A stretch of DNA of 33,871 bases from the IMG/VR virus record IMGVR_UViG_2579778856_000005. The stretch is one strand, 5' to 3'. Both the position numbers and the translations under genes were made by a program. Source of the stretch: a virus. Taxonomy: Duplodnaviria; Heunggongvirae; Uroviricota; Caudoviricetes. This document shows, piece after piece, positions 13,403-33,132 of the stretch (position 1 is its first letter; each line of letters opens with the position of its first letter). The notes beneath the pieces are model-generated. The model was not told the DNA's origin. It was given only the letters and a program-made list of their open reading frames with translations, and did not search any database.

Positions 13403-13477
13403 AGTGGTTAACCTCCGGGGAAGGTGAAAAGACGTGAGGGGATAACGCAGAACAGCCGCTACTGGCGGCTGTCTGTA

Positions 13478-13895
13478 CTATGATTTGTCGCCGTACTCGC
13501 TTTTGATTTGCTCTTCAGCCTGCTCCAGCCACATCTCCAGATCGTCAGTATCGAGGGCATCAATCTCCCCCGGCTGAAACCGGAACCATCTCGCCAGCAG
13601 CCCCTGCGCCTGCGTCAGCGCCCTGGTTGCTCTCACCCATCCCCGTGATGAGCTGAAATCGTTTCTGTAACTGCAGGTAATCAGCCAGATCCATATTGTC
13701 GAGATCTTCCGGGAGAAGACCAGTACTGCGGGCAATCAGCGGTTCGTCCCAGTCTGCCGGGTTTTTGCTGATTTTGCGCACCTGCTTCAGGTCTTTTACC
13801 GTCAGGCGTTTCAGTTCAACCAGCTCAATTCTGGTGCCTGCAGCAGTGGTGAAGGGATAAGACAATTTAAAAGTATCGGATGGGGTCTGTGACAT
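13478..13895 (-). CDS. Tail assembly chaperone, putative frameshifted long form (GT / E+E' analogue)
   Basis: A second ORF (13478-13735) overlaps the 3' end of the chaperone ORF in the +1 (equivalently -2) frame and extends it by ~28 aa of plausible protein sequence (..IDALDTDDLEMWLEQAEEQIKSEYGDKS). Confidence 0.5.
13560..13895 (-). CDS. Tail assembly chaperone (lambda G / P2 E analogue), short form
   Basis: 111 aa, acidic, between tube and tape measure; AGGAG RBS. Confidence 0.8.
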   Translation of the reverse strand: MSQTPSDTFKLSYPFTTAAGTRIELVELKRLTVKDLKQVRKISKNPADWDEPLIARSTGLLPEDLDNMDLADYLQLQKRFQLITGMGESNQGADAGAGAAGEMVPVSAGGD

Positions 13896-13949
13896 GATTG
13901 TGCTCCTGTGTAAGTTCAGGGCAGTATGTCGGGAGAAGCGCGTGACGGA

Positions 13950-13990
13950 TATTAAAGGAGATTAAGAAGAAGGGGCCGGAGCCCCTGTGA
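13950..13990 (-). terminator. Putative intrinsic terminator/attenuator between tube region and chaperone
   Basis: Perfect palindrome AGGGGC-CGGA-GCCCCT (13971-13986) followed on the minus-strand transcript by a T-rich run (ttcttcttaatctccttt). Confidence 0.5.
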
Positions 13991-13992
13991 TG

Positions 13993-14274
13993 TCAGCAAG
14001 TGCGAAACCCCTTGCAGTTACGCAGGAAAGCGATGAGAAGCGTCTTTCCCTCAGATTTGCCGATGCCGGAGAACCAGTGGTCGGGAGGCTCCCATGCTTC
14101 AATCAAATCCGCCAGTTTGCGGGCCTTTGAACGTGTGCAGTCAATCGGGTCATTGGTTTTACGGGTATTAAAAAGGGTTTCCACCCCCGGAATATCAAGG
14201 AGGGTAAACCACGTACCATTTGACATGCCCAGTGCCGCACATCGTCCTCCTTTATCCGTCAGTTCAACACTCAC
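13993..14274 (-). CDS. Hypothetical small protein between tube and chaperone
   Basis: 93-codon open frame in a 380-bp gap; start codon ambiguous (GTG at 14274, or an internal ATG with a distant AAGGAGGA). Confidence 0.35.
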   Translation of the reverse strand: MSVELTDKGGRCAALGMSNGTWFTLLDIPGVETLFNTRKTNDPIDCTRSKARKLADLIEAWEPPDHWFSGIGKSEGKTLLIAFLRNCKGFRTC

Positions 14275-14276
14275 CG

Positions 14277-14798
14277 TCAGCCCCCGATATTGATACGGTA
14301 GTCAGTCAGTTGATCAACACCGCCGACCCGGAAGATGTTGGCCAGATAGTCCAGTTGCAGCAGCTCTTCACCATCCAGTACCTGTCTGATATACGTGCAG
14401 GTGAAGCTACTGGAGAACTCGGCGTTCTCGTGCTGTTTGAACGTCCCCAGCGGGTTCTTCTTGAACATAATCGTCAGGAAGGTGACCAGCGGGATTTCGT
14501 CAATCAGCCCCTGCGAGCTGTAGCGCTGGACGCTGGAACGACACTGCAGTGCCAGCGACCTGTACGGGTTCGCGGCAGACAGCATCGCATCGCGGTAAAA
14601 GCTGTTCCATTTGATTTCGCCTTCCAGCTTGTCAAAACCAGCCGGGAGTTCCACCTTACCCACCATCCCCAGCGCCTTGTGTTCCTGCATAATCATGGAG
14701 ACATCGGGGAGTTTAACTTCCTCAGCCCGTCCCAGCAGGTTAGTACCATCCAGATAGATGTTGGCATTCGTGATGCGGTTTATCTCAATCTTTGACAT
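14277..14798 (-). CDS. Tail tube protein (copy 1)
   Basis: 173 aa, ATGA overlap with the sheath stop; contractile-tail tube family by size and position. Confidence 0.9.
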   Translation of the reverse strand: MSKIEINRITNANIYLDGTNLLGRAEEVKLPDVSMIMQEHKALGMVGKVELPAGFDKLEGEIKWNSFYRDAMLSAANPYRSLALQCRSSVQRYSSQGLIDEIPLVTFLTIMFKKNPLGTFKQHENAEFSSSFTCTYIRQVLDGEELLQLDYLANIFRVGGVDQLTDYRINIGG

Positions 14799-16089
14799 CA
14801 GTTGCCCCCTTTCAGGGTTAACAGGTATTCCGAGGTGATCTCAGTCTCAAACGTCAGTCGCTCCAGCGGCGGTGGTGGCGTATATTTGTAGCTCAGCAAC
14901 AGGTGCCCGGCGGCCAGCTCCGTCTCCGGATTGCGGGCCGGATCAAACCAGCAACGGAAGCCCAGTACCGCACCATCACCAGTCATTTTGCGACCGTAGG
15001 CGTTGACCGACTCCGTCAGTGCATCAATCAGCGCCTGAGTAATCGGCATGTCGATGTACTGCTGGCTGAAATAACGAATGGACTCGTTGATCACATCACC
15101 GGTGCGGCGAACGTTCTCAAAGTTACGCATATGGGTGACCGTTGGCCATGCTGCCGTCCGGTTACCCCACAGACGAAGGCCGCTGCCGTAACTGCTGAAT
15201 ACCGTGGTGATCCCCTGTTCGTTAAGCAGGTTCACCTCACTCTGCGGGTCATCAATCATCGCGGACAGCTGGCGCTCCACGCCGGTGATCCCCAGAATCT
15301 CCTGATTGGAGGATGACCACCAGTAGCCCTTGTCCAGATCGACTCTGGCACGCAGACCTGCTGCACGCTGGCTGAGCGGCTCCAGACGCTCTGTGTTTGT
15401 CACCGGGTCATATACCTTCACATGCGGATAGCACAGACGGACGCGGTCGGAGCTGGTATTGAAGTTGATGGTGCCTTCCGGGCCACGACCTGCCAGAGCC
15501 TGTGCAAAGGTGGTACCGACAGGCGCATCAATGTAGGTTACCGCGCCCAGCTTCTCTGCCATGGCGATAAGCTCAACTGCGACACTCTTCTGGGTGCAGA
15601 ACACCGGCGCAATCAGAATTTTGGCGAAATAGCCGTACAGGTTGAAGCTGTCGTTAAGCAGCTTCATGCCGGTTCGGTTTCCGGCGCTGTTCACCCCGCC
15701 GATGATGTCCGCCGCAGTCACCTTCGACGGGTCCGCGTACTCATAGCTCACCTTCACGCTGCCACCGGCCTCAATAGCCTTGCCCAGGTTCGTGAGCACA
15801 CCCGCCTGCGCATCAACACGGTAGTCCGTGTTCGCCGTGTGGGTGGTGCTGCCTTCACTGTTTTTCACCACCACATTAGCGACAACCGGATGCGCCAGTC
15901 TGGCCTGCCCTGTCGATTTGTCAAAGGTAACCACCTCATCCTCGATCGCCGTTTTATGTTTCGCCGGGTCGAGGACGTTAATGACCAGAACGGTGCCTGC
16001 ACCATGGTCATAAATCGCATCCAGCGCCTGCGGAATGGTAAAGCCGGTGAACTGGCTGCCAAATGCCGCTGCGTCTTTCTCAGACAGGC
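14798..16089 (-). pseudogene. Tail sheath protein, 5'-truncated fragment (lacks ~45 N-terminal codons)
   Basis: Matches the intact sheath at 20649-22076 up to the duplication junction at 16089, then reads into out-of-frame U-derived sequence. Confidence 0.8.
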
Positions 16090-16302
16090 TGTTCGCAGTC
16101 TCGCCAGCTCCACATCGGGTACACAATAATGCTGATGGAAAACCAGAGTTATCTGGATTTCGTCCAGCCTGTCGCCGACGAACTGCAGACCAGGCTTACC
16201 CCCGATGCGGGCATGCTCCGCATAATCGACGCCGAACGTGGCCTCGAAGCCGTCCCAGTAGGTAATCAGCTCAAACTCAATATCACCCAGTACGGCAAAC
16301 AT
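16090..16302 (-). pseudogene. gpU-like tail protein, 3'-truncated fragment (first 71 codons)
   Basis: Identical to the N-terminus of the 9567-10451 protein (MFAVLGDIEFELITYWDGFEATFGVDYAEHARIGGKPGLQFVG...) then fused out of frame to sheath antisense sequence. Confidence 0.8.
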
Positions 16303-19253
16303 CAGCGGTACTCCTTACGTTGTTTCTGAGCCAGCAGACGCTCCAGCATTTTTTCCAGCTCATGCAGACTCATATTCAGGGCACCAGTCAGTCCTGCAGG
16401 CGCTGTGGTTTCCCTGCCATTGAGGAAAAACTGAGGATTAAAGCTGACCTGGATACCACCAGACGTTCCACCGCCGGTTGCAGCTGCACCACGGCCTGAA
16501 TATCCGGCAGCCAGGATTTCAGGCGAGGGGATACGGGGAACATCCGGTGTCATCTCATTTGCCAGACGTTGCCCTGGTAAAATCGATGCCCGGGTGGAGA
16601 GCGGAATAACGGGCATGGAAGACAAACTATTGATTACGGCTCCGATCGCATTTTTAGCAGACGACATAAACCCATTGATATCGGGCAACGGCATACTGAA
16701 GCGAACACCTGAAGTGTTATCCCGTATTTCTGGCCCCTGAATGCTCACGGGCATTCTGGGGAGCAGTTCACTGGCCATTCGCTGCCCGGCCAGAGCTGCA
16801 AGCGGAGTGGTCCGCTGCAGGCCAATGGCGGCCCCCTGCGCGATATTGTCACCAAAGCCCATAAACACGCGGCTCGGCGAATGAATGCCCAGCTTTTCGC
16901 TGAACCAGCCACTGATGCTGTCGCCCATTCCGGTTACACTGGATTTGAGCGACTCCCATTTGTTTTTGATACCGTTAATCAGACCATCGACAAGATGGCC
17001 ACCGAAGTCGGTAAACTTTGCCGGCAGATCAACACCAAGATATTTCAGCGCAGCTGCAAAGGCTTTATAGAGCAGACCTGCCGGCGACCAGTTAATCAGC
17101 AGCTTACCAGTTCCCGCGATACCGCCGTTAAAGGCTTCCTGAATGTCAGCCCAGCATTGTTTAAACCAGCTACTGATGCTGTCACCCATTCCGGTTACAC
17201 TGGATTTGAGCGACCCCCATTTGTTTTTGATACCGTTAATCAAACCGTCGATAAGATGGCCACCGAAGTCGGTGAACTTTGCCGGCAGAGTAACGCCGAA
17301 ATATTTCAGCGCAGCCGCAAAGGCTTTATAGAGCAGGCCTGCCGGCGACCAGTTAATCAGCAGCTTACCAGTTCCCGCGATACCGCCGTTAAAGGCTTCC
17401 TGAATGTCAGCCCAGCGCTGTTTAAACCAGCCACTGACTGCCCCCCAGTTGCGGTAGATAAGGTAAGCTGCTGCCGCGACAGCGGTGATAACGAGACCGA
17501 TGGGATTCATCATCAGCGCTCGCCCAATCCAGAGAACGGCACGTGCAGCGCTCATAAAACCGCGAACGAGGCTGCCCGCCAGAACTTTGCTGAGTTTCAG
17601 TCCTCCGCTGGTCAGTCGGCTGAATCCAGTGACAAGCCAGCGTAATTTGCCACCTTCTCCGAGTGCGGTAGTCAGTCGATGCCAGTTGGTCCGGAGTAAA
17701 ACAGCAGTTTTCCAGACGTTCACAAAGGGGGAAATAAGGAGATTCAGCCCCAGTTTGAGACCAACAGTCGCTATCTTAATCGCAAGGAGCGCACTGATGA
17801 GCTTAAAAGCCCCACTGACAAATTGCGGGTGAGTCGCCACCCAGTGTTTTGTCCCCTGAATGAGTGGGAGCAAGTCCTGAGTCAGAGAAATAAAAGATGG
17901 AGCTAATTGATCGCCCAGCGTAATTGCCAGATCGCGACTGCTGACCATAAGTGTTTTAGTGGCTTCAAGGGGAGATTTCAGCCGCTGATCATAAGCACTG
18001 GCAAGCAAATCGTTATCCGCAGCCCTGAGAGCACCGGCACGGATCTCTCGATATCTGTCCATGTTGGCCAGCATCGGGCGGATAAATGCCATGACCTGCA
18101 TATCCGCGAACATATCGCCCAGACCAAAGTTTTTCGCCAGAGCCTGAAGTGCCTCATCTCTTGCCGTATCATTCTTTATTTTCATGGCTGATTTGAAGCC
18201 GGCCAGCGCTTCGGGGCTTTTGGCATTGAGGTAACGTTCTATAACACTCAACATCCCTTCAATCGGAGAGATCCCCGCAGCTTTATAACTCGCAATAGAT
18301 CCCTGCAAATCAATACCCAGATCAGCAAACTGTTTCTGAGTATCGCGGGCAAAAATTTTGGTAAGAAAGTTTTTAAAATTATTGGCTGCTTCGTCGGTGG
18401 AACCTGCACCGATTTTTGCTATCTGGAGACTGGCCCCGATTTCAGCAACAGCCTCTTTTCCACTGGCAAGACCCGCCATCATTGGGGCCAGGGACTGCAT
18501 CCACTTGACCTGATCCGGGATTTCAAATGACCCCTGGTCACCGGCATAAGCCATAATATTCTGAACGGCACCAAAATCTCTGGCCGCACCTTTCAGGGAG
18601 TTTTGCCAGACTGCGGCCACTTTTGCCCAGTCCTGAGCAGACGTGCGTGTTGCCGTTGCCGCGCGGGCAATATCCGGCATCAGAAAACCGATATCTGACA
18701 CATTATCAATATTGTCGCTGATGAGTGAACCCATCGCCTCCTGCAGCTCATCCTGATACTGATTGTATTTAAGCGCCCAGCCTTTTATCTGTCCGGCAAG
18801 TGCATCCCGCGTTTTATTGTCATATTTTGCGGTGATCGACATATCAATCATTTTGTCCTGAAAAGACATGGACTGCTGAACGGCAGGGGAAACCGTATGA
18901 TAAACAGTCTGTGCCATGCCATACGCTTCAATCCCCTGACCATACAGCGCCATGCGGTTAGCTTTCAGCGCATCACTGGTAGCGGATGCCGCTGACAGAC
19001 GGCGCTGCTGGCGCTCAATTTGCTCCATGGTGCGGCTTACCCGCAGCAGCTCGCTGTTGAGATGCTGCATCCGGGAAGAACCCAGTTGACCATAACGTTC
19101 TGTTGCACGGGTTAAAGCGTTCTGACGTTCCTGCAGGCGGCGTGAGGTATCGCTCAGGGAATCAAGCGCACGGCGGGTACCGCTCATTGCAGAACGGAAT
19201 GTGCTGCCAATCATCCCGCCGATAACAACGCCGACTGAAAACTGTCCCGACAT
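16302..19253 (-). CDS. Tail tape measure protein (copy 2)
   Basis: 983 aa; about 9 amino-acid differences from copy 1. Confidence 0.9.
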   Translation of the reverse strand: MSGQFSVGVVIGGMIGSTFRSAMSGTRRALDSLSDTSRRLQERQNALTRATERYGQLGSSRMQHLNSELLRVSRTMEQIERQQRRLSAASATSDALKANRMALYGQGIEAYGMAQTVYHTVSPAVQQSMSFQDKMIDMSITAKYDNKTRDALAGQIKGWALKYNQYQDELQEAMGSLISDNIDNVSDIGFLMPDIARAATATRTSAQDWAKVAAVWQNSLKGAARDFGAVQNIMAYAGDQGSFEIPDQVKWMQSLAPMMAGLASGKEAVAEIGASLQIAKIGAGSTDEAANNFKNFLTKIFARDTQKQFADLGIDLQGSIASYKAAGISPIEGMLSVIERYLNAKSPEALAGFKSAMKIKNDTARDEALQALAKNFGLGDMFADMQVMAFIRPMLANMDRYREIRAGALRAADNDLLASAYDQRLKSPLEATKTLMVSSRDLAITLGDQLAPSFISLTQDLLPLIQGTKHWVATHPQFVSGAFKLISALLAIKIATVGLKLGLNLLISPFVNVWKTAVLLRTNWHRLTTALGEGGKLRWLVTGFSRLTSGGLKLSKVLAGSLVRGFMSAARAVLWIGRALMMNPIGLVITAVAAAAYLIYRNWGAVSGWFKQRWADIQEAFNGGIAGTGKLLINWSPAGLLYKAFAAALKYFGVTLPAKFTDFGGHLIDGLINGIKNKWGSLKSSVTGMGDSISSWFKQCWADIQEAFNGGIAGTGKLLINWSPAGLLYKAFAAALKYLGVDLPAKFTDFGGHLVDGLINGIKNKWESLKSSVTGMGDSISGWFSEKLGIHSPSRVFMGFGDNIAQGAAIGLQRTTPLAALAGQRMASELLPRMPVSIQGPEIRDNTSGVRFSMPLPDINGFMSSAKNAIGAVINSLSSMPVIPLSTRASILPGQRLANEMTPDVPRIPSPEILAAGYSGRGAAATGGGTSGGIQVSFNPQFFLNGRETTAPAGLTGALNMSLHELEKMLERLLAQKQRKEYR
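16891..17436. repeat. 258-bp tandem repeat inside tape measure gene, copy 2
   Basis: Same repeat as 11040-11585, offset by 5,851 bp. Confidence 0.8.
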
Positions 19254-19410
19254 AGTGGTTAACCTCCGGGGAAGGTGAAAAGACGTGAGGGGATAACGCA
19301 GAACAGCCGCTACTGGCGGCTGTCTGTACTATGATTTGTCGCCGTACTCGCTTTTGATTTGCTCTTCAGCCTGCTCCAGCCACATCTCCAGATCGTCAGT
19401 ATCGAGGGCA

Positions 19411-19746
19411 TCAATCTCCCCCGGCTGAAACCGGAACCATCTCGCCAGCAGCCCCTGCGCCTGCGTCAGCGCCCTGGTTGCTCTCACCCATCCCCGTGAT
19501 GAGCTGAAATCGTTTCTGTAACTGCAGGTAATCAGCCAGATCCATATTGTCGAGATCCTCCGGGAGAAGACCAGTACTGCGGGCAATCAGCGGTTCGTCC
19601 CAGTCTGCCGGGTTTTTGCTGATTTTGCGCACCTGCTTCAGGTCTTTTACCGTCAGGCGTTTCAGTTCAACCAGCTCAATTCTGGTGCCTGCAGCAGTGG
19701 TGAAGGGATAAGACAATTTAAAAGTATCGGATGGGGTCTGTGACAT
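19411..19746 (-). CDS. Tail assembly chaperone (copy 2)
   Basis: Identical to 13560-13895; overlapping +1-frame ORF at 19329-19586. Confidence 0.8.
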   Translation of the reverse strand: MSQTPSDTFKLSYPFTTAAGTRIELVELKRLTVKDLKQVRKISKNPADWDEPLIARSTGLLPEDLDNMDLADYLQLQKRFQLITGMGESNQGADAGAGAAGEMVPVSAGGD

Positions 19747-19843
19747 GATTGTGCTCCTGTGTAAGTTCAGGGCAGTATGTCGGGAGAAGCGCGTGACGGA
19801 TATTAAAGGAGATTAAGAAGAAGGGGCCGGAGCCCCTGTGATG

Positions 19844-20125
19844 TCAGCAAGTGCGAAACCCCTTGCAGTTACGCAGGAAAGCGATGAGAAGCGTCTTTCC
19901 CTCAGATTTGCCGATGCCGGAGAACCAGTGGTCGGGAGGCTCCCATGCTTCAATCAAATCCGCCAGTTTGCGGGCCTTTGAACGTGTGCAGTCAATCGGG
20001 TCATTGGTTTTACGGGTATTAAAAAGGGTTTCCACCCCCGGAATATCAAGGAGGGTAAACCACGTACCATTTGACATGCCCAGTGCCGCACATCGTCCTC
20101 CTTTATCCGTCAGTTCAACACTCAC
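19844..20125 (-). CDS. Hypothetical small protein (copy 2)
   Basis: Duplicate of 13993-14274. Confidence 0.35.
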   Translation of the reverse strand: MSVELTDKGGRCAALGMSNGTWFTLLDIPGVETLFNTRKTNDPIDCTRSKARKLADLIEAWEPPDHWFSGIGKSEGKTLLIAFLRNCKGFRTC

Positions 20126-20127
20126 CG

Positions 20128-20649
20128 TCAGCCCCCGATATTGATACGGTAGTCAGTCAGTTGATCAACACCGCCGACCCGGAAGATGTTGGCCAGATAG
20201 TCCAGTTGCAGCAGCTCTTCACCATCCAGTACCTGTCTGATATACGTGCAGGTGAAGCTACTGGAGAACTCGGCGTTCTCGTGCTGTTTGAACGTCCCCA
20301 GCGGGTTCTTCTTGAACATAATCGTCAGGAAGGTGACCAGCGGGATTTCGTCAATCAGCCCCTGCGAGCTGTAGCGCTGGACGCTGGAACGACACTGCAG
20401 TGCCAGCGACCTGTACGGGTTCGCGGCAGACAGCATCGCATCGCGGTAAAAGCTGTTCCATTTGATTTCGCCTTCCAGTTTGTCAAAACCAGCCGGGAGT
20501 TCCACCTTACCCACCATCCCCAGCGCCTTGTGTTCCTGCATAATCATGGAGACATCGGGGAGTTTGACTTCCTCAGCCCGTCCCAGCAGGTTAGTACCAT
20601 CCAGATAGATGTTGGCATTCGTGATGCGGTTTATCTCAATCTTTGACAT
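20128..20649 (-). CDS. Tail tube protein (copy 2)
   Basis: Protein identical to copy 1. Confidence 0.9.
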   Translation of the reverse strand: MSKIEINRITNANIYLDGTNLLGRAEEVKLPDVSMIMQEHKALGMVGKVELPAGFDKLEGEIKWNSFYRDAMLSAANPYRSLALQCRSSVQRYSSQGLIDEIPLVTFLTIMFKKNPLGTFKQHENAEFSSSFTCTYIRQVLDGEELLQLDYLANIFRVGGVDQLTDYRINIGG

Positions 20650-22076
20650 CAGTTGCCCCCTTTCAGGGTTAACAGGTATTCCGAGGTGATCTCAGTCTCA
20701 AACGTCAGTCGCTCCAGCGGCGGTGGTGGCGTATATTTGTAGCTCAGCAACAGGTGCCCGGCGGCCAGCTCCGTCTCCGGATTGCGGGCCGGATCAAACC
20801 AGCAACGGAAGCCCAGTACCGCACCATCACCAGTCATTTTGCGACCGTAGGCGTTGACCGACTCCGTCAGTGCATCAATCAGCGCCTGAGTAATCGGCAT
20901 GTCGATGTACTGCTGGCTGAAATAACGAATGGACTCGTTGATCACATCACCGGTGCGGCGAACGTTCTCAAAGTTACGCATATGGGTGACCGTTGGCCAT
21001 GCTGCCGTCCGGTTACCCCACAGACGAAGGCCGCTGCCGTAACTGCTGAATACCGTGGTGATCCCCTGTTCGTTAAGCAGGTTCACCTCACTCTGCGGGT
21101 CATCAATCATCGCGGACAGCTGGCGCTCCACGCCGGTGATCCCCAGAATCTCCTGATTGGAGGATGACCACCAGTAGCCCTTGTCCAGATCGACTCTGGC
21201 ACGCAGACCTGCTGCACGCTGGCTGAGCGGCTCCAGACGCTCTGTGTTTGTCACCGGGTCATATACCTTCACATGCGGATAGCACAGACGGACGCGGTCG
21301 GAGCTGGTATTGAAGTTGATGGTGCCTTCCGGGCCACGACCTGCCAGAGCCTGTGCAAAGGTGGTACCGACAGGCGCATCAATGTAGGTTACCGCGCCCA
21401 GCTTCTCTGCCATGGCGATAAGCTCAACTGCGACACTCTTCTGGGTGCAGAACACCGGCGCAATCAGAATTTTGGCGAAATAGCCGTACAGGTTGAAGCT
21501 GTCGTTAAGCAGCTTCATGCCGGTTCGGTTTCCGGCGCTGTTCCCCCCGCCGATGATGTCCGCCGCAGTCACCTTCGACGGGTCCGCGTACTCATAGCTC
21601 ACCTTCACGCTGCCACCGGCCTCAATAGCCTTGCCCAGGTTCGTGAGCACACCCGCCTGCGCATCAACACGGTAGTCCGTGTTCGCCGTGTGGGTGGTGC
21701 TGCCTTCACTGTTTTTCACCACCACATTAGCGACAACCGGATGCGCCAGTCTGGCCTGCCCTGTCGATTTGTCAAAGGTAACCACCTCATCCTCGATCGC
21801 CGTTTTATGTTTCGCCGGGTCGAGGACGTTAATGACCAGAACGGTGCCTGCACCATGGTCATAAATCGCATCCAGCGCCTGCGGAATGGTAAAGCCGGTG
21901 AACTGGCTGCCAAATGCCGCTGCGTCTTTCTCAGACAGGCACTGTACCAGCGTATTGACATCCCCCATCGGGGCGGTACCAATCAGGCCAATAACGGCAG
22001 ATTTCACCGTTTTAACCGGGCGGGCACCGTTTTCCACCTCAATGGTTTCGGGACCATGCAGATAGTTAGCTGCCAT
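20649..22076 (-). CDS. Tail sheath protein (intact copy)
   Basis: 475 aa, MAANYLHGPETIEVENGARPVKTVKSAVIGLIGTAP..; contractile sheath family. Confidence 0.9.
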   Translation of the reverse strand: MAANYLHGPETIEVENGARPVKTVKSAVIGLIGTAPMGDVNTLVQCLSEKDAAAFGSQFTGFTIPQALDAIYDHGAGTVLVINVLDPAKHKTAIEDEVVTFDKSTGQARLAHPVVANVVVKNSEGSTTHTANTDYRVDAQAGVLTNLGKAIEAGGSVKVSYEYADPSKVTAADIIGGGNSAGNRTGMKLLNDSFNLYGYFAKILIAPVFCTQKSVAVELIAMAEKLGAVTYIDAPVGTTFAQALAGRGPEGTINFNTSSDRVRLCYPHVKVYDPVTNTERLEPLSQRAAGLRARVDLDKGYWWSSSNQEILGITGVERQLSAMIDDPQSEVNLLNEQGITTVFSSYGSGLRLWGNRTAAWPTVTHMRNFENVRRTGDVINESIRYFSQQYIDMPITQALIDALTESVNAYGRKMTGDGAVLGFRCWFDPARNPETELAAGHLLLSYKYTPPPPLERLTFETEITSEYLLTLKGGN

Positions 22077-27157: not shown

Positions 27158-28634
27158 GCAGACGTCCCCGGATATTTGCCACAAAGAGAATGCGGGCCAG
27201 CCGCTCCTGCAGATCGTCCGTGTTCATCTGAGGGTAGAGCTCCGCCAGTTCGCCCAGCAGCTCAGACGGGTTAACCCCGTTTTCGACCCGCTTAAACAGA
27301 GGTGCCAGGACGGGTTCCAGCGTGCCATTTAACACACCTCCGTTCATCAGAATGTCCAGCGCGTCGTCAAGCTGCTGCTGAGCCTGAATATCGGCATCAA
27401 TCGCCTCGGCAAATGACAGCGGCAGCATGTTATTCTGGCGTTCCGACGGTGGTGTCTCGTCAATATCGCCGTCCTGCAGCTGGTACTCACGCTTAAAGTA
27501 TTGCGGGGTCAGACGCAGACCCGCCCGGGTGAGTTTTTCGTCGCGGGTGGCGCGGGTGTCATCAATGGTCTCCTGTTCCCACATGGCCCAGACCGGACAC
27601 GGCACATCGCCGAAGTTCAGGGTGACCACCGTTCTGATAACCTGATTCACTGCTGCCTGAATGATGTCCGCATCCGCATCGCGGATATCAGCCGTTACCT
27701 CCAGCCCGGCCTGTGCAGAGGCCTTGTTACTGTTCGCTTCCGTGGTCTGATTCTGACCGAGTAATGCAATGGAGATCTCACTGCGTGACAGTGTGATCAG
27801 CTCGCGAAATACCTCGCTGCTGTCTGCCTTGCCATCCGCTGCCCTGAGCTCAATACTGCTGTCATCGGGGATGGCGGCCACCGCGTCCTCCACCATCTGC
27901 TCCATGGAGTCCAGCAGTTTTTCAATCTCTGCATCATTTGCGCCCCTCGGGTGCTTACCGATCACCCACGGGGAGCCAAACTTTTCGGCAAAGCGGAGCC
28001 AGAATTTCATCCCGCCTTTCTTGAAGGCGACCGGCCAGAAGCACATGGACAGGTCCGGGAAACCGTAAGGATTGTCATACGAGGCATCCTGTGCCGGCAC
28101 CACGAATTTTGACGGTGACAGCAGCTCACCCTCCACACCCGCATCACGCGCCCGGAAGCGCAGGCAGTTGTCCGTATCAAACTGAAACCACTCAGGCGGT
28201 TTGCCGACAATATCCGTCACTGCCCACGCCCTGACCGAACGGCCCCACATGATTTCACAGGGCTGATACCCGTAGAGCACGGCATCGCTCATTTCACCGA
28301 TGATGCGGGACAGATCCAGATCGTCGAGCATGTCGCGGATGAAACGGAAGACCCGGGCAGAAGCGTGACCGCGCTCCAGTCCACGCTCCAGCGATTTGAG
28401 CGCTGCTTTACGTCTGCGGATACAGCCCCCGACCAGCGGGTCGGTGCGCAGTTCGCGGTAGATACGGATATCCCGTCCCTGAGCCTTGAGAATGGGATCA
28501 GGATTGGGCAGATACATGCCCAGTCCGTAAAAGTCGATCGCGCGGCTGCGGGAGGCAATCTGCGCGGTCAGTGATTTCTGAGGCTCAGAAAAAGCAACAA
28601 ATTCATCGGGTGAAACCCAGATACCCCTCGCCAT
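27138..28634 (-). CDS. Portal protein (Mu H-like)
   Basis: 498 aa; ATGA overlap with the terminase stop. Confidence 0.9.
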   Translation of the reverse strand: MARGIWVSPDEFVAFSEPQKSLTAQIASRSRAIDFYGLGMYLPNPDPILKAQGRDIRIYRELRTDPLVGGCIRRRKAALKSLERGLERGHASARVFRFIRDMLDDLDLSRIIGEMSDAVLYGYQPCEIMWGRSVRAWAVTDIVGKPPEWFQFDTDNCLRFRARDAGVEGELLSPSKFVVPAQDASYDNPYGFPDLSMCFWPVAFKKGGMKFWLRFAEKFGSPWVIGKHPRGANDAEIEKLLDSMEQMVEDAVAAIPDDSSIELRAADGKADSSEVFRELITLSRSEISIALLGQNQTTEANSNKASAQAGLEVTADIRDADADIIQAAVNQVIRTVVTLNFGDVPCPVWAMWEQETIDDTRATRDEKLTRAGLRLTPQYFKREYQLQDGDIDETPPSERQNNMLPLSFAEAIDADIQAQQQLDDALDILMNGGVLNGTLEPVLAPLFKRVENGVNPSELLGELAELYPQMNTDDLQERLARILFVANIRGRLHERDNG

Positions 28635-30229
28635 CAGAATCCCTCCAGCATACGGGCCGCCTGACGACGACGGCGTGAGCTTGCCTTCACCGGCCCTTTG
28701 TTAATTTCACGGCTGGCGAAATACGCCAGCGCCAGTGCGATGGCTGAATCCCCGTGACGTTTACCACCATCAGCCTTTGCTTTTGAGCGTTGCTCCGGCA
28801 CGCGGGGGACACCGTTCACCACCTGAACGGCCCGCAGGTCATCCAGTGTGTCTTCATCCTTTGGTAAGTCCACCAGGTTGCCGTCTTCCAGTGCAGCTTT
28901 GACCGGAGGCATATGCTCCCGGTACCAGCCTTCGGTTGGCATCACCTGCTGAACCCGGCCGGAGCCGTAGCGCTGCATGGCGTATTCAGCCAGATAGGCA
29001 CCATTACCACGGGCATCAAACGCTGCACCCAGCAGACCGGGCAGGCCATCCATCAGATACCAGGTGATTTGCTCCTGCTGTCTGAACGGCACGTTACGCA
29101 GCTCCAGTACGAATGGCACGCGTCGTACCAGGTTCTTCTCCTGCAGCAGGGGATAGTCCACCGACAAATCACCGCTACGGCCAAAGTCGCGCCCCAGGAA
29201 AGAGCGGGCATCAGTGGGGAGTGCCTCCAGCAATGGTTTCAGATACTCATCAAGCCAGTCCTGCGTCTCGCGGAAGCGAACCTCATCAGACAGCAGTTCA
29301 TAACCTTCCTTGCAGGTCAGACGCAATACCGGCGTATCAGCGGACATGCGGGACTCTATCAGGGCACGGGACAGCCAGGCACCGCCACCGTTGGCCGGAA
29401 TACAGTCAAGCTCTTCGGATGCGCCGGCACCGTAGAATTTGTACACCGATGCCATCCAGGCCTGCTCGGATGCCTCCGACCATTCCTTCCCGGTGCGCAG
29501 ACAGACGCGCCGGAACAGCCCCTCAGATACGGCTTCCCGGAAAGTGATGCGATGTATGCTGCCTCCCTGACGTCCGGCACGGATATCCCCGATAAGCGTA
29601 TTGAACGGATTGTCGTCACCGTCATGGGTGGAGATAACGCGTACCTTTCCCCCCCAGATAAGCATCGCCAGCGCCGCTTTCAGCAGTTCGTCCAGTTGCT
29701 CATGGAACGCCGCTTCGTCGATAACAATAATACCCTGACGGCCACGCAGGTTAGACGGGCGGCTGGAGAGCGCAACAATACGAAAGCCGGAGTCAGGAAA
29801 TTTGATGGTGTAAGTCTTGATGTGTTTGTCGTCGTCGTCCTCTTCCCAGAATCCTTCTTCAATTTCACTGGCCGCATAGTTGAATGCCCGTGCCCACATC
29901 GCACACGCCTGAATGTATTCGACGGTCATGTCCTGGTTATAAGCGATGTAATACACATTCATCCCGCCTGCTGGCGCAGAAGAGGCGGCGGTCAGTACGT
30001 TATCGGATGCCTCAGCCCATGTAATACCGGTACGACGGCTCTTTTCTATCACCTTAAGCGGAGAGGTGTCTGCCACCCAGCGCTGCTGGTAAGGCAACAG
30101 AACGGGAGGGGCATCCAGCGCCGAGGTATCAGGCAAAACGGGAGCAAGGTTATTCCTCCCGTCCATGGGACTCATCCCTTCGGGGCCGCCGCCAGCGGCG
30201 TTTAAAATCACTCCGGATGATTTTGTCAT
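28634..30229 (-). CDS. Terminase large subunit
   Basis: 531 aa with an ATPase region (..GIIVIDEAAFHEQ.. Walker B-like) and a C-terminal nuclease half; directly precedes the portal. Confidence 0.85.
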   Translation of the reverse strand: MTKSSGVILNAAGGGPEGMSPMDGRNNLAPVLPDTSALDAPPVLLPYQQRWVADTSPLKVIEKSRRTGITWAEASDNVLTAASSAPAGGMNVYYIAYNQDMTVEYIQACAMWARAFNYAASEIEEGFWEEDDDDKHIKTYTIKFPDSGFRIVALSSRPSNLRGRQGIIVIDEAAFHEQLDELLKAALAMLIWGGKVRVISTHDGDDNPFNTLIGDIRAGRQGGSIHRITFREAVSEGLFRRVCLRTGKEWSEASEQAWMASVYKFYGAGASEELDCIPANGGGAWLSRALIESRMSADTPVLRLTCKEGYELLSDEVRFRETQDWLDEYLKPLLEALPTDARSFLGRDFGRSGDLSVDYPLLQEKNLVRRVPFVLELRNVPFRQQEQITWYLMDGLPGLLGAAFDARGNGAYLAEYAMQRYGSGRVQQVMPTEGWYREHMPPVKAALEDGNLVDLPKDEDTLDDLRAVQVVNGVPRVPEQRSKAKADGGKRHGDSAIALALAYFASREINKGPVKASSRRRRQAARMLEGF

Positions 30230-30771
30230 GTGGCAATCCCCAGAATCTCGCGACGAAGCGCCTGTACTGCGTCGCTTGACAGTCCCCCCTTACGGGCAAT
30301 TTTCTCGGCGTTGCTGGCTGCCTGCTGCGCTCTGGCCCGTACTTCAGACTGGAACTTTTTGAGGTTGACGGACGCGCGGGACAGCGTAGCCACATTCTTC
30401 GCCACCTTCGACAGCAGGGCCACGCGTTCTTTAGGATCGACTTCGCCTTCTTCCGCCTCCTGCAACTGGACAATACTCTCGAACAGCTCGGTCTGAATAA
30501 GGGCTATCACAGCCTCCGAACGCGCATCCTGATCGTCTGCTGCGCCTTCGGTCAGCATGCGGGCCGCTTCTGTTGCCGCACGGATAGCACCATAGCGGCG
30601 CTCAATCTTCTGTCCATAGCGATGGATAGCGGATTTGCTGATGACGTACCCCCGCTCACGCAACAGTGACTCCAGCTCGTTATACCCGCTGAAGCCGGAT
30701 TCAGTCAGCGCCCGTTCAAGCCAGCGGCGCACGTCTTCCGGCAGCTTTTCTATTGTGCTGCGTCTGGCCAT
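30226..30771 (-). CDS. Putative terminase small subunit (Mu gp27 position)
   Basis: 181 aa immediately upstream of the large terminase, overlapping it; N-terminal HTH-like segment. Confidence 0.5.
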   Translation of the reverse strand: MARRSTIEKLPEDVRRWLERALTESGFSGYNELESLLRERGYVISKSAIHRYGQKIERRYGAIRAATEAARMLTEGAADDQDARSEAVIALIQTELFESIVQLQEAEEGEVDPKERVALLSKVAKNVATLSRASVNLKKFQSEVRARAQQAASNAEKIARKGGLSSDAVQALRREILGIAT

Positions 30772-31082
30772 TATTCACTCCAGTACTTTTCCGGGCGGGC
30801 AATACCCGGACCACATTCCACGGTGTATTCCACCAGGTCTACGCCGAGGCGGGTCAGGTCAGCAAACCAGTCGCCAGAAGGTTTTTTCTCCAGCTCAACC
30901 ATTTTACGGTCAGCCAGATAATCCAGTTCGCGGCGCAGTTCCAGCGGTGTGGTGTCCGGGTAGATGGCACGGGACACATCCAGCAGCAGCGTCTCGCTGG
31001 CGGTGTAAGGGCGGGTCTTGTTCAGGGCAACCAGCAGACTCCAGCGCAGGGATTCGCGGCGTACCCGGGTAATATCGACCAT
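30771..31082 (-). CDS. Hypothetical protein
   Basis: 103 aa, TAATG coupling on both sides. Confidence 0.5.
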   Translation of the reverse strand: MVDITRVRRESLRWSLLVALNKTRPYTASETLLLDVSRAIYPDTTPLELRRELDYLADRKMVELEKKPSGDWFADLTRLGVDLVEYTVECGPGIARPEKYWSE

Positions 31083-31408
31083 TATTGACCTCCGGTATTG
31101 CGGTACTGCTGTACCACTTCCAGTTTGTTATAAAGCGCGTCCAGTTTGGCCTCAATGACTGTCTGGCCACGGATATAATCCTCTCGACGGACATAATTCA
31201 GCGGTAAATCCGCTTTAAATCGCATAAATTCTTTTTCCAGCTCGCCCCAGTTGGAGGCGGATTGTTGCAGGGCCTGTTCAAGGGAGGCGAATCGTGCCGC
31301 CTGGCGTTCTTCTGTTTTACTGAACAACCATTTGGCGAGCCCTCCCACAAACCTCATGAAGGTGAGCAGAAAACTCACCACCGTCCAGAATTCAACCTGC
31401 AGTGTCAT
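31082..31408 (-). CDS. Hypothetical membrane protein
   Basis: 108 aa with one N-terminal TM segment (FWTVVSFLLTFMRFVGGLAKWLF) followed by a coiled coil. Confidence 0.5.
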   Translation of the reverse strand: MTLQVEFWTVVSFLLTFMRFVGGLAKWLFSKTEERQAARFASLEQALQQSASNWGELEKEFMRFKADLPLNYVRREDYIRGQTVIEAKLDALYNKLEVVQQYRNTGGQ

Positions 31409-32055
31409 TTCTGTAATCCTTCCCGTTCATCCAGTAGCGCGTTTATCTGGTTTCGCCAGCGACGACATTGCCCTGCGTTGTCGATGATGTTGGCAAGGAC
31501 GTCAAGCTGGGAGACACCCGAATTGCGTAACCGGGCGTCAGCGGTTTCAGGTTGCCCGGTCGCTGCGCCAGTGCCGGTGCCAGCGGCGGCAACTGAGTCT
31601 GAATGACCGGTGTCGACGGATGCGTTGTCGTATCCGAGTGCGGCGTTGTACTGGCGCACGAAACCGCGAGTAAACACGCACTCAATGGGATGACTCTTAC
31701 CTTTTTCATCAATCCAGCGCTGTGTGACATCGTTAATTTGCCCCTGTAGTTGTTTGTTCCGGCTCTCCAGTTGAGCAATCTGCTCAAGATAACCGGCTTC
31801 AGCCCGCTGCCCGGCGGCCACCTGCTCCTGATACCGTCTGGCCCAGGCCCGCAGCGCAGCATTCTCAAGCGTTGCCTGCTCCGTTTTGTACGCGTCAAAT
31901 GCTGACTGCAACTGACTTAGCGCGGTATCACCGTCACGCTTTGCAGAGTCATGACCACTTCTGTATCCCATGGCATACAGGCCGACCAGAAAGGCATTGA
32001 TAAGAATGGCCAGCAGAATGCCGCGCCACGGCAGCTTTTTAACCAGATGCCACAC
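31405..32055 (-). CDS. i-spanin (Rz-like)
   Basis: Likely GTG start at 32055 preceded by GGGGAGG. N-terminal TM segment (GILLAILINAFLVGLYAMG) then a long coiled coil; contains an embedded +1-frame lipoprotein ORF. Confidence 0.6.
   Translation of the reverse strand: MWHLVKKLPWRGILLAILINAFLVGLYAMGYRSGHDSAKRDGDTALSQLQSAFDAYKTEQATLENAALRAWARRYQEQVAAGQRAEAGYLEQIAQLESRNKQLQGQINDVTQRWIDEKGKSHPIECVFTRGFVRQYNAALGYDNASVDTGHSDSVAAAGTGTGAATGQPETADARLRNSGVSQLDVLANIIDNAGQCRRWRNQINALLDEREGLQK
31443..31709 (-). CDS. o-spanin (Rz1-like), embedded in the i-spanin gene
   Basis: 88 aa from MKKVRVIPLSACLL; lipobox L-S-A-C, Pro-rich mature part. Confidence 0.6.
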   Translation of the reverse strand: MKKVRVIPLSACLLAVSCASTTPHSDTTTHPSTPVIQTQLPPLAPALAQRPGNLKPLTPGYAIRVSPSLTSLPTSSTTQGNVVAGETR

Positions 32056-32779
32056 AACTGCTGCCTCCCCATGTGAGATATCGCGGTGCCAGTTCGCGCA
32101 GGATGCGCTGCGGATAATGGCGGTTCTCCCGCCAGCTGGCAGTGCTGCGTCCGGCATTCACCGTGGCGACATGACCAAACCAGCGGGTGCTGTCCAGCCC
32201 TTTTTGTGATGCAAGCCGCCTGTCCCGCTGTACCCAGCCCAGACCACCGTTATAGCCCGACAGTGTCATGGCCATACGCTCGCAGTCACTGGCGGCGCTG
32301 ACGCGCTGCCACAGCCAGCGGTCATAGCTGACCAGCGCCCGGATGGCCCATGCCGGATTAAATGGCTCACGGCTGTTAAGCCCCGGCATCAACTGACTTA
32401 TCCAGTCGGCGGTGGCGGGCATGAACTGCGCCAGTCCCTGAGCGCCAACCGGCGAGATCGCATCAGGTCGCCAGCCGCTTTCCTGATGCAGTTGCGCAGC
32501 GAAATCAGCCACCGGCGCAGACAGTCCCCATTCAAGCCGGGCATTACGGATCACATCATCGCGATACTGCAGCGCTGCCTGCGGAGGCTGCGCTGCGCGG
32601 GCCTGACTGAAGAAGCCGCCACACCAGAGCAACATTGCGACAAAGAATACCCGTGCCATATGAACCAGAAAGGTCCCGGCGCGGACTGACAGGCGTTCGG
32701 TTCTGATGAAGACCCTAAAGGCTTCGAAAGCCAGTTTCAGGGACATGCATACAATCCAGGTGATCTGCGGCCAGTTCAT
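32039..32779 (-). CDS. Endolysin, lytic transglycosylase (SLT domain)
   Basis: Contains EsGwRPDAiSPvGAqGLaQfMPaTA, the SLT catalytic-Glu region. ATG at 32779 lies 2 nt after the holin-like stop. Alternative ATG at 32659 would give a classic Sec signal peptide (MARVFFVAMLLWCGGFFSQARA). Confidence 0.8.
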   Translation of the reverse strand: MNWPQITWIVCMSLKLAFEAFRVFIRTERLSVRAGTFLVHMARVFFVAMLLWCGGFFSQARAAQPPQAALQYRDDVIRNARLEWGLSAPVADFAAQLHQESGWRPDAISPVGAQGLAQFMPATADWISQLMPGLNSREPFNPAWAIRALVSYDRWLWQRVSAASDCERMAMTLSGYNGGLGWVQRDRRLASQKGLDSTRWFGHVATVNAGRSTASWRENRHYPQRILRELAPRYLTWGGSSCVASG

Positions 32780-32781
32780 GA

Positions 32782-33132
32782 TTAAAGCCCCATCGCAACA
32801 GCCAGACAGACCGCTGCAACAATCAGTGCACGGCGGATTAACGCAGCAGAAAACACCAGGTGAAGGCCGGTCTGTACCGGGAAACGCCCATCAGCCATCA
32901 GCCTGTCGTCATGTTTCAGGTACTGACCGGGACGGGCTTTGGGGAAGAGCGAACGGTCAAGCCAGTAACCCAGCACTGCTGCCAGCGTGATGAGTGCCAG
33001 CTTGTAGATCACAACAGGCAACTGCTGTGGCGAGACCAGAGCGATGGTGCCCAGCAACAGCACTGAGGTCAGCAGCCAGCCGCTGAGGCGAGGTTTTTTA
33101 ACAGGGGGAATGAATTTTTTCAGGTTTTTCAT
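32782..33132 (-). CDS. Putative holin / small membrane protein
   Basis: 116 aa from the ATG at 33132 (AAGGAGA RBS) with three hydrophobic segments; first gene of the lysis cluster. Confidence 0.5.
   Translation of the reverse strand: MKNLKKFIPPVKKPRLSGWLLTSVLLLGTIALVSPQQLPVVIYKLALITLAAVLGYWLDRSLFPKARPGQYLKHDDRLMADGRFPVQTGLHLVFSAALIRRALIVAAVCLAVAMGL

Follow-up and report, generated by a model that had tools for sequence, protein, structure and literature searches.

We asked whether the i-spanin (Rz-like) gene in a stretch of viral DNA holds a genuine second gene for an o-spanin (Rz1-like) within it, in the +1 frame, as a preliminary description had proposed. The window, that is, the whole stretch of 33,871 nt that was analyzed (IMG/VR record IMGVR_UViG_2579778856_000005), sets the candidate pair among genes that all lie on the minus strand, in the order holin, SLT endolysin, and two-component spanin with embedded architecture (Table 1). 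The spanin pair stands immediately downstream from the PF13272 holin and the PF01464 SLT endolysin, with overlapping stop and start codons. We place the probability at roughly 0.92 that the window contains the lysis cassette of a BcepMu-like (Mu-like) Escherichia coli prophage, with a two-component embedded spanin included. The holin reading frame as listed starts farther out, at a GTG (33165), but similarity to the family begins only at Met12 (33132), and the holin CDS in related records is 351 nt long. The N-terminus of the endolysin has a hydrophobic segment. The 108-aa protein encoded directly after the spanins is syntenic with gp25 of BcepMu, for which an inner membrane location is putative. 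We considered it as a releasin of the Mu gp25 type and dropped the idea, since it had no match to DUF2730 (Pfam) even at E ≤ 10 and the analogy is positional only. As a separate observation, the tail genes of the prophage hold an odd 5.85-kb tandem duplication, and the prophage may therefore not function as a whole.

Table 1. Features of the lysis cassette and its spanin genes, in positions of the window
Feature	Position	Strand	Basis
Holin	32782..33132	-	PF13272 Holin_2-3, E 1.5e-41; PHROG 1528 holin, E 8.2e-55
Endolysin, SLT-domain lytic transglycosylase	32039..32779	-	PF01464, E 2.2e-14; PHROG 669 endolysin, E 2.9e-68
Shine-Dalgarno GGGAGG of the i-spanin	32064..32069	-	8 nt before the GTG; read from the sequence
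i-spanin (Rz-like), 216 aa, GTG start	31405..32055	-	ORF and translation; PHROG 1403 Rz-like spanin, E 2.4e-90
i-spanin transmembrane codons (predicted), residues 12–30, GILLAILINAFLVGLYAMG	31966..32022	-	Kyte-Doolittle 19-residue mean 2.15
o-spanin (Rz1-like), 88-aa precursor, +1 frame	31443..31709	-	Conserved ORF; homology to BcepMu gp24
o-spanin signal peptide (predicted) MKKVRVIPLSACLLAVS	31659..31709	-	n-region MKKVR, h-region VIPLSACLLAV, lipobox L-A-V-S before Cys18
TGC codon of Cys18, predicted lipid-modified residue, Ala at +2	31656..31658	-	PS51257 rule; homologue alignments
o-spanin core motif LPPLAPALAQRPGNLKPLTPGYA, precursor residues 40–62	31524..31592	-	Conserved in homologue alignments
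108-aa membrane-anchored protein, directly after the spanins	31082..31408	-	PHROG 462, E 2.4e-35; position of BcepMu gp25

The i-spanin gene overlaps both of its neighbors, by 4 nt (ATGA) with the next gene and by 17 nt with the endolysin gene. Residues 12–30 are the sole hydrophobic segment of the protein, with K6, K7, and R11 ahead of them, which confirms the single N-terminal transmembrane segment described previously. For the coiled coil described alongside it, support extends only to predicted helices: AlphaFold2 gives long ones (residues 9–117 and 182–214, joined by a low-confidence linker at 118–181; mean pLDDT only 56), whereas a crude comparison of heptad (3.5-residue) periodicity with shuffled sequences was not significant for either residues 36–117 (p = 0.71) or residues 182–214 (p = 0.10). 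A coiled coil is thus something that we infer only, from the predicted helices. The predicted periplasmic part has two cysteines, C126 and C197 (C125 and C196 in alignment A1). Because both are invariant within the family, covalent i-spanin homodimers, as in lambda Rz, are possible. One or more periplasmic cysteines for intermolecular disulfides are found in 507 of 528 spanin systems (Kongari et al. 2018, PMC6139136), and in the present pair C126 and C197 provide them. The idea that the o-spanin loses its cysteine when the i-spanin gains a C-terminal one was not supported by the relatives from Brenneria and Pectobacterium, which have one Cys in the i-spanin and none in the o-spanin.

The ATG of the nested ORF lies 346 nt into the i-spanin gene, and its end falls 38 nt short of the i-spanin stop. 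It is therefore fully embedded, as first described, and covers 0.53–0.94 of the i-spanin gene length; ∼70% of embedded o-spanins start at 0.4–0.5 L and end at 0.9–1 L (Kongari et al. 2018, PMC6139136). The precursor begins MKKVRVIPLSACLLAVSCASTTP. A second in-frame ATG, at 31730, lies 21 nt upstream and would extend the precursor to 95 aa. Since this ATG is as well conserved as the one at 31709, and is the sole usable start in some distant relatives, the o-spanin start is ambiguous; the mature protein is identical from either. The Shine-Dalgarno sequence ahead of ATG 31709 is poor (GGA, 3 nt upstream).

The hydrophobicity of the o-spanin precursor peaks at residues 6–16 (Kyte-Doolittle 11-residue maximum of 2.55), and the signal-peptide segment is nearly invariant in both reading frames. 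The signal peptide is followed by a mature part that starts CASTTP and is 71 aa long from Cys18, with 11 Pro (15.5%) and 30% Ser+Thr. This agrees with the Pro-rich mature part of ∼70 aa noted earlier, and the length fits Cys18. The mature part has no Cys other than the lipid Cys, and no hydrophobic segment follows the signal peptide in the 88-aa product. A unimolecular spanin of the T1 gp11 type was ruled out, as there is no C-terminal transmembrane segment and a separate i-spanin is present. Within the core motif, L47, R50, P51, L57, and Y61 are invariant in both homologue alignments, together with P42 in alignment A2 and P59 in alignment A3.

The preliminary description had placed a lipobox cysteine in the string it quoted as the start of the ORF. 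A lipoprotein signal is indeed present, according to a scripted PROSITE PS51257-type rule; the residue predicted to be modified is Cys18, and not the Cys12 of that string. The rule is satisfied at Cys18 alone, and Cys18 is invariant in 16 diverse homologues, phage B3 among them, and aligned to LSA↓C of BcepMu gp24. The lipobox reads A-V-S-C, with an Ala at −3 that is outside the strict [LVI][ASTVI][GAS]C consensus and is permitted by PS51257. We regard as highly unlikely a genuine o-spanin that carries its lipid on Cys12, with a mature part of 77 aa starting CLLAVSC. L-S-A-C does fit the strict consensus better than A-V-S-C, and Cys12 is retained in nearly all enterobacterial relatives and, as LAAC, in BcepMu gp24. 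It exists only where the i-spanin uses GTG among the synonymous codons for Val, a choice that is conserved. The upstream ATG would moreover put a 19-residue peptide ahead of it. From ATG 31709, however, Cys12 is too near the start, the hydrophobic core preceding it is just VIPLSA (∼6 residues), and the Pro at −4 violates the PS51257 rule. Some relatives have L-N-A-C at this place, which is not a lipobox, and phage B3 has no Cys there, yet its LAAG↓C is aligned to Cys18. It is Cys18 that is invariant and then followed by a conserved [AS][STN][ST]TPP, and the signal peptide of lambda Rz1 likewise contains a spare Cys.

Two cysteines in the signal region, 6–8 residues apart (here C12 and C18), are common to the enterobacterial and BcepMu o-spanins. 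The 54-nt stretch that encodes i-spanin residues 116–133 shows almost no variation, whichever codon position is considered. We allow a slender chance that lipidation or cleavage can take place at either Cys12 or Cys18, perhaps depending on which of the two ATGs (31730 or 31709) is used, or that the 54-nt stretch has a further function. If both cysteines were used, the gene would yield a longer and a shorter mature o-spanin, which might differ in sorting or timing; the dual-coding stretch might, for example, contribute to the control of internal initiation.

Lipidation of a single mature o-spanin at Cys18 presupposes that the nested frame is translated at all. The +1 ORF could be a frame that is open by chance within a GC-rich gene, with no protein product and a coincidental lipobox. 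As a null model, we generated 5000 synonymous-codon permutations of the i-spanin gene. An ATG-initiated ORF of at least 88 aa arose in the +1 frame of 21% of permutations, and an open +1 run of at least 157 codons in 8.7%. The length of the ORF was therefore dropped as evidence. The weak Shine-Dalgarno at the o-spanin start, a product matched by no family library, and gene callers that almost never call the ORF are likewise what a chance frame would lead one to expect. ORFs that reached 60 aa and also contained a PS51257-type lipoprotein signal, on the other hand, appeared in only 0.34% of permutations.

Conservation was decisive, and confirms the nested ORF as a genuine gene under purifying selection. 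The +1 lipoprotein ORF is kept in 104 of 106 loci that encode an i-spanin relative (i-spanin identity of 35%–100%) in Escherichia, Klebsiella, Salmonella, Citrobacter, Serratia, Brenneria, Pectobacterium, and Pseudomonas phage B3, and the two loci without it are a single decayed prophage, sampled twice. The fully embedded arrangement was seen in 96 related loci. Relatives down to 35%–41% i-spanin identity retain the ORF together with its core motif and lipobox Cys, and their indels preserve the frame, being multiples of three. Among 57 distinct DNA variants, there were zero stops in the +1 frame, and the ATG and stop were common to all. Moreover, the diversity of i-spanin third positions was 0.289 outside the overlap versus 0.102 inside it (Mann-Whitney p = 5e-10), as expected if synonymous sites are suppressed by a second coding frame. 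Given these data and the homology of the product to the annotated Rz1 of BcepMu, a chance frame is extremely unlikely.

The frame under the stronger constraint changes along the overlap. Over the i-spanin linker, the +1 frame is the better conserved of the two, with an amino-acid diversity of 0.251 in the i-spanin versus 0.082 in the o-spanin (residues 42–64) over approximately the same bases. Over the C-terminal helix of the i-spanin, the relation is reversed (0.102 in the i-spanin versus 0.261 in the o-spanin). Purifying selection is thus observed on both frames. It is scarcely credible that the low synonymous variation instead reflects recent homogenizing recombination or an RNA or DNA element: prophage mosaicism is common and the 54-nt stretch fits a noncoding cause, but that stretch is accounted for by two overlapping constrained peptides (i-spanin ECVFTRGFV and the o-spanin signal peptide), and recombination would neither hold a lipobox ORF open across genera at 41%–53% i-spanin identity nor switch the conserved frame segment by segment.

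Searches with the o-spanin itself returned little. At E ≤ 0.01, it had no match in PHROGs or Pfam; relaxed searches of PHROGs gave only sub-significant matches, to Rz-like spanin families (812, 456, 1267, and 3198; E 0.013–0.6). These four families are ∼100 aa long, and the matches (for PHROG 812, E 0.18) are suggestive only. NCBIfam gave nothing meaningful. In a collection of 5.8 billion protein clusters, we found six matches with the o-spanin alone and 13 with a 16-sequence profile, none of them named a spanin. Most were chimeras of the two spanin frames, apparently produced by frameshifts, and correctly called o-spanin copies are almost absent from this collection.

In phage BcepMu, gp24 carries the annotation "Rz1, out of frame, embedded proline-rich protein." It is 37% identical to the o-spanin over 62 aa (E 6e-6), and BcepMu gp23 is 31% identical to the i-spanin over 118 aa (E 1e-9); both E-values are from pairwise BLASTP of single comparisons. 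The o-spanin and gp24 have in common the motif P.LPP.L..RP....PL.PGYA...SSPT and an additional Cys ahead of the one in the lipobox, and the i-spanin motif ECVFTRGFV also occurs in gp23. The nested gene of BcepMu is likewise in the +1 frame and occupies 0.51–0.94 of its host gene (0.53–0.94 here). The gene order matches that of BcepMu gp21–gp28, namely, holin, SLT endolysin, Rz with nested Rz1, membrane protein, gp26-like protein, TerS, and TerL; the TerS of the prophage is of the Mu gp27 type (PF11985). Among phage records, the closest is that of PhiKM, a member of Bcepmuvirus. The two systems also differ. BcepMu infects Burkholderia, whereas the host here belongs to Enterobacterales, and BcepMu is absent among the 60 phage records matched by the i-spanin in tblastn at E ≤ 1e-3. 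The mature part of gp24 has one extra Cys, whereas the o-spanin here has none; C197, the second and C-terminal Cys of the i-spanin, is missing from gp23; and the lipobox reads AVS↓C here versus LSA↓C in gp24.

BcepMu and B3 have both been counted among the embedded spanin families (Kongari et al. 2018, PMC6139136). ORF27 of Pseudomonas phage B3 (B3/JBD25/JBD18/JBD67 group) is 34%–35% identical to the i-spanin over 92% of its length and adjoins a BcepMu-like holin and SLT endolysin. The +1 frame of B3 encodes a lipoprotein with LAAG↓CATSTPP and an RP...LTP.Y core as here. It overruns the i-spanin stop by 7 nt, which makes the B3 pair strictly overlapped, not embedded, and the B3 o-spanin is extended by a longer tail and contains one more Cys. 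We considered whether the family mixes the two architectures and rejected this, since only B3 overruns and the remaining cases that looked "overlapped" come from symbionts in which the i-spanin is a pseudogene.

Phage Mu, in turn, has a two-component spanin, gp23/gp23.1, between its endolysin and the gp25–gp28 block, and is itself a transposable phage (Chamblee et al. 2022, PMC9239132). No sequence similarity of our pair to Mu gp23/gp23.1 was detectable. Mu has no holin and has the releasin gp25 (DUF2730), whereas the present cassette has a PF13272 holin and the 108-aa downstream protein.

The spanins of lambda resemble the pair in design, with no sequence similarity detected to Rz or Rz1. Lambda Rz/Rz1 is also an embedded two-component spanin in the +1 frame, with the nested gene at 0.48–0.87 L, where the i-spanin linker and second helix are encoded. 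Like the i-spanin here, Rz is anchored by a membrane segment at its N-terminus and has two Cys in the periplasm; like the o-spanin, Rz1 is a Pro-rich lipoprotein with a spare Cys inside its signal peptide. The proteins differ in size (i-spanin of 216 aa here versus 153 aa in lambda; mature o-spanin of 71 aa versus 40 aa), and Cys29 of Rz1, which serves an intermolecular disulfide, has no counterpart in the o-spanin. Lambda combines a cytoplasmic endolysin with a canonical holin, whereas the present cassette encodes an SLT transglycosylase, hydrophobic at its N-terminus, as endolysin. The PHROG 1403 match, the nested lipoprotein ORF, its conservation, and the homology to BcepMu gp24 together support classification of the pair as a probable embedded two-component spanin of the lambda Rz/Rz1 type, the architecture that the preliminary description had recognized. 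On these sequence grounds, the pair would have a function in lysis.

By analogy with lambda, we can outline how the two proteins may act. The N-terminal segment would hold the i-spanin in the inner membrane, and its helical domain would sit in the periplasm. The o-spanin would be translated from the internal +1 start on the same mRNA and exported by means of its signal peptide; Cys18 would then be lipid-modified, and the precursor cleaved by signal peptidase II. Because Ala, not Asp, follows Cys18, the Lol system would be expected to sort the o-spanin to the inner leaflet of the outer membrane. As proposed for Rz/Rz1, the two spanins would bind across the periplasm, threaded through the peptidoglycan mesh, until removal of the peptidoglycan by the endolysin frees the complexes. 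On collapse, the freed complexes could bring about fusion of the outer membrane with the inner one, and the last barrier to phage release would be gone.

The cassette is not rare, as we found it in 637 of 5426 complete E. coli genomes. The o-spanin is unannotated in all four records that we inspected, which were one RefSeq chromosome and phages PhiKM, KP12, and B3. The RefSeq E. coli chromosome labels the same 651-nt i-spanin CDS a "hypothetical protein," and PhiKM and KP12 label it a "putative lipoprotein." In biological terms, the o-spanin completes the lysis cassette as one would expect for a phage of Gram-negative bacteria, an ordinary last-step lysis device, and it confirms the earlier call of a lysis cassette in the window. 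Embedded spanins are already known, and judging from its homology, the present pair would add a member to the BcepMu gp23/gp24 family. The locus also exemplifies the division of constraint between overlapping genes, with a conserved o-spanin opposite the variable i-spanin linker and the reverse at the C-terminal helix.

Every gene in this region is on the minus strand. The i-spanin gene has a GTG start with a GGGAGG Shine-Dalgarno sequence 8 nt upstream and encodes 216 aa. It is closely packed with its neighbors, as in an operon: its first 17 nt lie within the end of the preceding gene, and its stop codon shares the sequence ATGA with the next start. A +1-frame ATG 346 nt inside this gene opens an 88-aa ORF that stops 38 nt ahead of the i-spanin stop and encodes the o-spanin precursor (MKKVRVIPLSACLLAVSCASTTPHSDTTTHPSTPVIQTQLPPLAPALAQRPGNLKPLTPGYAIRVSPSLTSLPTSSTTQGNVVAGETR). 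The coordinates and peptide quoted in the preliminary description were correct. Among phage records, PhiKM of Escherichia (genus Bcepmuvirus) is the closest, with 97.9% nucleotide identity.

Lysis cassette and neighboring genes in the window
Feature	Coordinates	Strand	Evidence
Holin	32782..33132	-	PF13272, E 1.5e-41; PHROG 1528
SLT-domain endolysin	32039..32779	-	PF01464, E 2.2e-14; PHROG 669
i-spanin (host gene)	31405..32055	-	PHROG 1403 Rz-like spanin, E 2.4e-90
o-spanin (nested +1 ORF)	31443..31709	-	
108-aa membrane-anchored protein	31082..31408	-	PHROG 462
103-aa protein, BcepMu gp26 position	30771..31082	-	PHROG 436
Mu gp27 small terminase	30226..30771	-	PF11985
Large terminase	28634..30229	-	position relative to BcepMu gp28 and annotation of phage KP12 only

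By itself, the open +1 frame is weak evidence for a gene, because a +1 ORF with an ATG start and a length of 88 aa or more appeared in 21% of 5000 permutations of the i-spanin synonymous codons (protein and codon usage kept). ORFs carrying a lipoprotein signal of the PROSITE PS51257 type appeared in only 0.46% of the permutations, and those of 60 aa or more in only 0.34%. The question is settled by comparative data, which argue that the nested ORF is more than chance. We compared 106 loci with an i-spanin relative at 35%–100% identity (four phage records, 21 bacterial genomes, 80 viral contigs, and the window). The +1 ORF, with its hydrophobic leader, ...SC[AS][STN]TTP... motif, and Pro-rich tail, was kept in 104; the remaining two loci are samples of a single Mixta mediterraneensis prophage, with a truncated i-spanin and the o-spanin lipobox Cys changed to Tyr. 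The frame was stop-free in all 57 distinct DNA variants (at least 69% identity), each with the identical ATG and identical stop.

Third-position diversity of the i-spanin gene was 0.289 outside the overlap versus 0.102 inside (57-sequence codon alignment; Mann-Whitney p = 5e-10). These positions are the second positions of the o-spanin, and such a drop would be expected if the +1 product were under purifying selection. Constraint was partitioned between the frames along the overlap: i-spanin residues 116–133 (DEKGKSHPIECVFTRGFV; diversity 0.011) face the o-spanin signal peptide (0.051), the Gly/Ala/Thr-rich linker 158–180 (0.251) faces the o-spanin core 42–64 (PLAPALAQRPGNLKPLTPGYAIR; 0.082), and the C-terminal helix 181–204 (0.102) faces the Ser/Thr-rich tail (0.261). 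Such switching of conservation between frames would not result from recombination or from a nucleic-acid element as the cause of the low diversity.

Cys occurs twice in the o-spanin precursor, as Cys12 and Cys18. The PS51257 rule (K or R within the first seven residues, then an uncharged stretch; pattern [LIVMFWSTAG](2)-[LIVMFYSTAGCQ]-[AGS]-C with Cys at position 15–35) matches only at Cys18 (L-A-V-S/C). This residue is invariant among 16 diverse homologs, including that of phage B3 (LAAG/CATSTPP), where the Cys12 position is without any Cys; in some relatives the first site reads L-N-A-C, which is not a lipobox. Further, AVS/CASTTP of the window aligns with ALSA/CGTPPP of BcepMu gp24, and lambda Rz1 too has an extra Cys within the signal peptide. 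Together, these observations point to Cys18 as the probable lipid-modified residue; the Ala at −3 falls outside the strict [LVI][ASTVI][GAS]C consensus. The lipoprotein signal proposed in the preliminary description stands, at Cys18 and not at the quoted Cys12, and the resulting mature part of 71 aa agrees with the ∼70 aa proposed. Under the Asp+2 rule of Lol sorting in E. coli, the Ala at +2 implies a predicted destination in the outer membrane.

In all 57 variants, the frame has a further ATG at 31730 (MSHSAGLMKKV...). For the Serratia and some Brenneria relatives, a usable signal peptide results only from this upstream Met; others, including a Salmonella diarizonae and a Citrobacter braakii relative, have the downstream Met alone. 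In the window, the Shine-Dalgarno sequence ahead of ATG 31709 is poor (GGA, 3 nt away); ATG 31730 has AGGGG 10 nt upstream, as read from the sequence. The start codon is ambiguous between the two, and the mature o-spanin is identical from either.

The PHROG 1403 match bears out the spanin classification of the host gene, and the single N-terminal membrane segment described earlier corresponds to one hydrophobic segment (residues 12–30) with basic residues ahead of it. An AlphaFold2 model (23-sequence alignment; mean pLDDT 56) has a continuous helix at 9–117, a low-confidence stretch at 118–181, and a helix at 182–214, a predicted layout that matches lambda Rz (membrane segment, helix, linker, helix). 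Tests for 3.5-residue periodicity in the helices gave p = 0.71 and p = 0.10, and a coiled coil is something we only infer. Two Cys of the i-spanin, Cys126 and Cys197 (numbered C125 and C196 in alignment A1, which omits the initiator residue), do not vary within the enterobacterial family, and Cys126 falls in the motif CVFT.GFVR..NAA.G, found in BcepMu gp23 as well.

Burkholderia phage BcepMu gp21–gp28 have the same order as the window: holin, endolysin, Rz[Rz1], membrane protein, gp26, TerS, and TerL. In pairwise BLASTP, gp23 is 31% identical to the i-spanin (E 1e-9), and gp24, annotated as "Rz1, out of frame, embedded proline-rich protein," is 37% identical to the o-spanin over 62 aa (E 6e-6), with the motif P.LPP.L..RP....PL.PGYA...SSPT in common. 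The nested genes of the window, BcepMu, and lambda all use the +1 frame and span 0.53–0.94, 0.51–0.94, and 0.48–0.87 of the host gene length (L), respectively. About 70% of embedded o-spanins start at 0.4–0.5 L and end at 0.9–1 L, and two i-spanin Cys with no o-spanin Cys is within the tabulated range (Kongari et al. 2018, PMC6139136). Embedded families there include (BcepMu, phiE255) and (B3, JBD25, JBD18, JBD67). In Pseudomonas phage B3 (locus L004), the +1 lipoprotein frame (1730–2074) ends 7 nt past the stop of the i-spanin gene ORF27 (1456–2067); strictly, this arrangement is overlapped, not embedded. Kongari et al. (2018) put it under embedded, and the RefSeq B3 record is without an o-spanin annotation. 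The nested +1 lipoprotein ORF, the PHROG 1403 host gene, and the BcepMu homology support the Rz/Rz1 embedded architecture: the pair is an ordinary embedded spanin, an unannotated member of the BcepMu-type family. The original observation is confirmed and its interpretation supported, with three details amended (Cys18, start codon, coiled coil).

The 108-aa protein is encoded immediately downstream of the spanins, its start codon overlapping the preceding stop as ATGA, and has an N-terminal membrane segment; PHROG 462 is described as "lipoprotein," and no lipobox is evident in this protein. It occupies the position of BcepMu gp25 and B3 ORF28. The corresponding neighborhood of Mu encodes the releasin gp25 (DUF2730) (PMC9239132), and the 108-aa protein had no DUF2730 match even at E ≤ 10. 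Toward its N terminus the endolysin has a weakly hydrophobic stretch rich in Gly and Ala, MARVFFVAMLLWCGGFFSQARA/AQ, preceded by ∼40 other residues whose status is uncertain; this stretch may act as a signal-anchor-release domain or as a cleavable signal with an A-x-A site. Annotated endolysin starts in related records differ by six codons.

Elsewhere, the window has a tandem direct duplication of ∼5.85 kb (10236–16086 and 16087–21937; offset 5851 nt), the copies ∼99.4% identical with roughly 35 mismatches. The unit holds a 983-aa tape-measure gene, a 173-aa gene (best PHROG match phrog_55, labeled head closure), and most of the tail-sheath gene, one copy of which is shortened to 442 aa versus 475 aa. 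The junction was found in none of 638 complete E. coli genomes carrying this prophage type, and the duplication reflects a rare event or else an artifact of assembly. The tape-measure gene also has a 261-nt internal tandem repeat (11052–11586, with a copy at 16903–17437) of two units, 94%–95% identical.

The cassette is present in 637 of 5426 complete E. coli genomes. In the RefSeq E. coli record inspected (L106; NZ_OW849064.1, 59834–60484), the i-spanin is a "hypothetical protein" with no nested CDS. PhiKM and KP12 label it "putative lipoprotein" and omit the nested gene, the label apparently borrowing a property of that unannotated gene. In a large protein collection, the o-spanin occurs almost only in apparent frameshift chimeras.

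By analogy with lambda Rz/Rz1 (summarized in PMC6139136), the i-spanin would be anchored in the inner membrane and the o-spanin held by its lipid anchor in the inner leaflet of the outer membrane, their periplasmic domains binding to span the periplasm through the peptidoglycan mesh. Holin triggering and peptidoglycan degradation by the SLT endolysin would then release the spanin complexes, which would collapse, fusing both membranes and completing lysis.

Decayed copies of the cassette occur in Candidatus Erwinia dacicola (L010/L091), Candidatus Symbiopectobacterium (L025), and M. mediterraneensis (L013/L095), with premature i-spanin stops in both symbiont copies. These are natural negative controls for the locus without selection.
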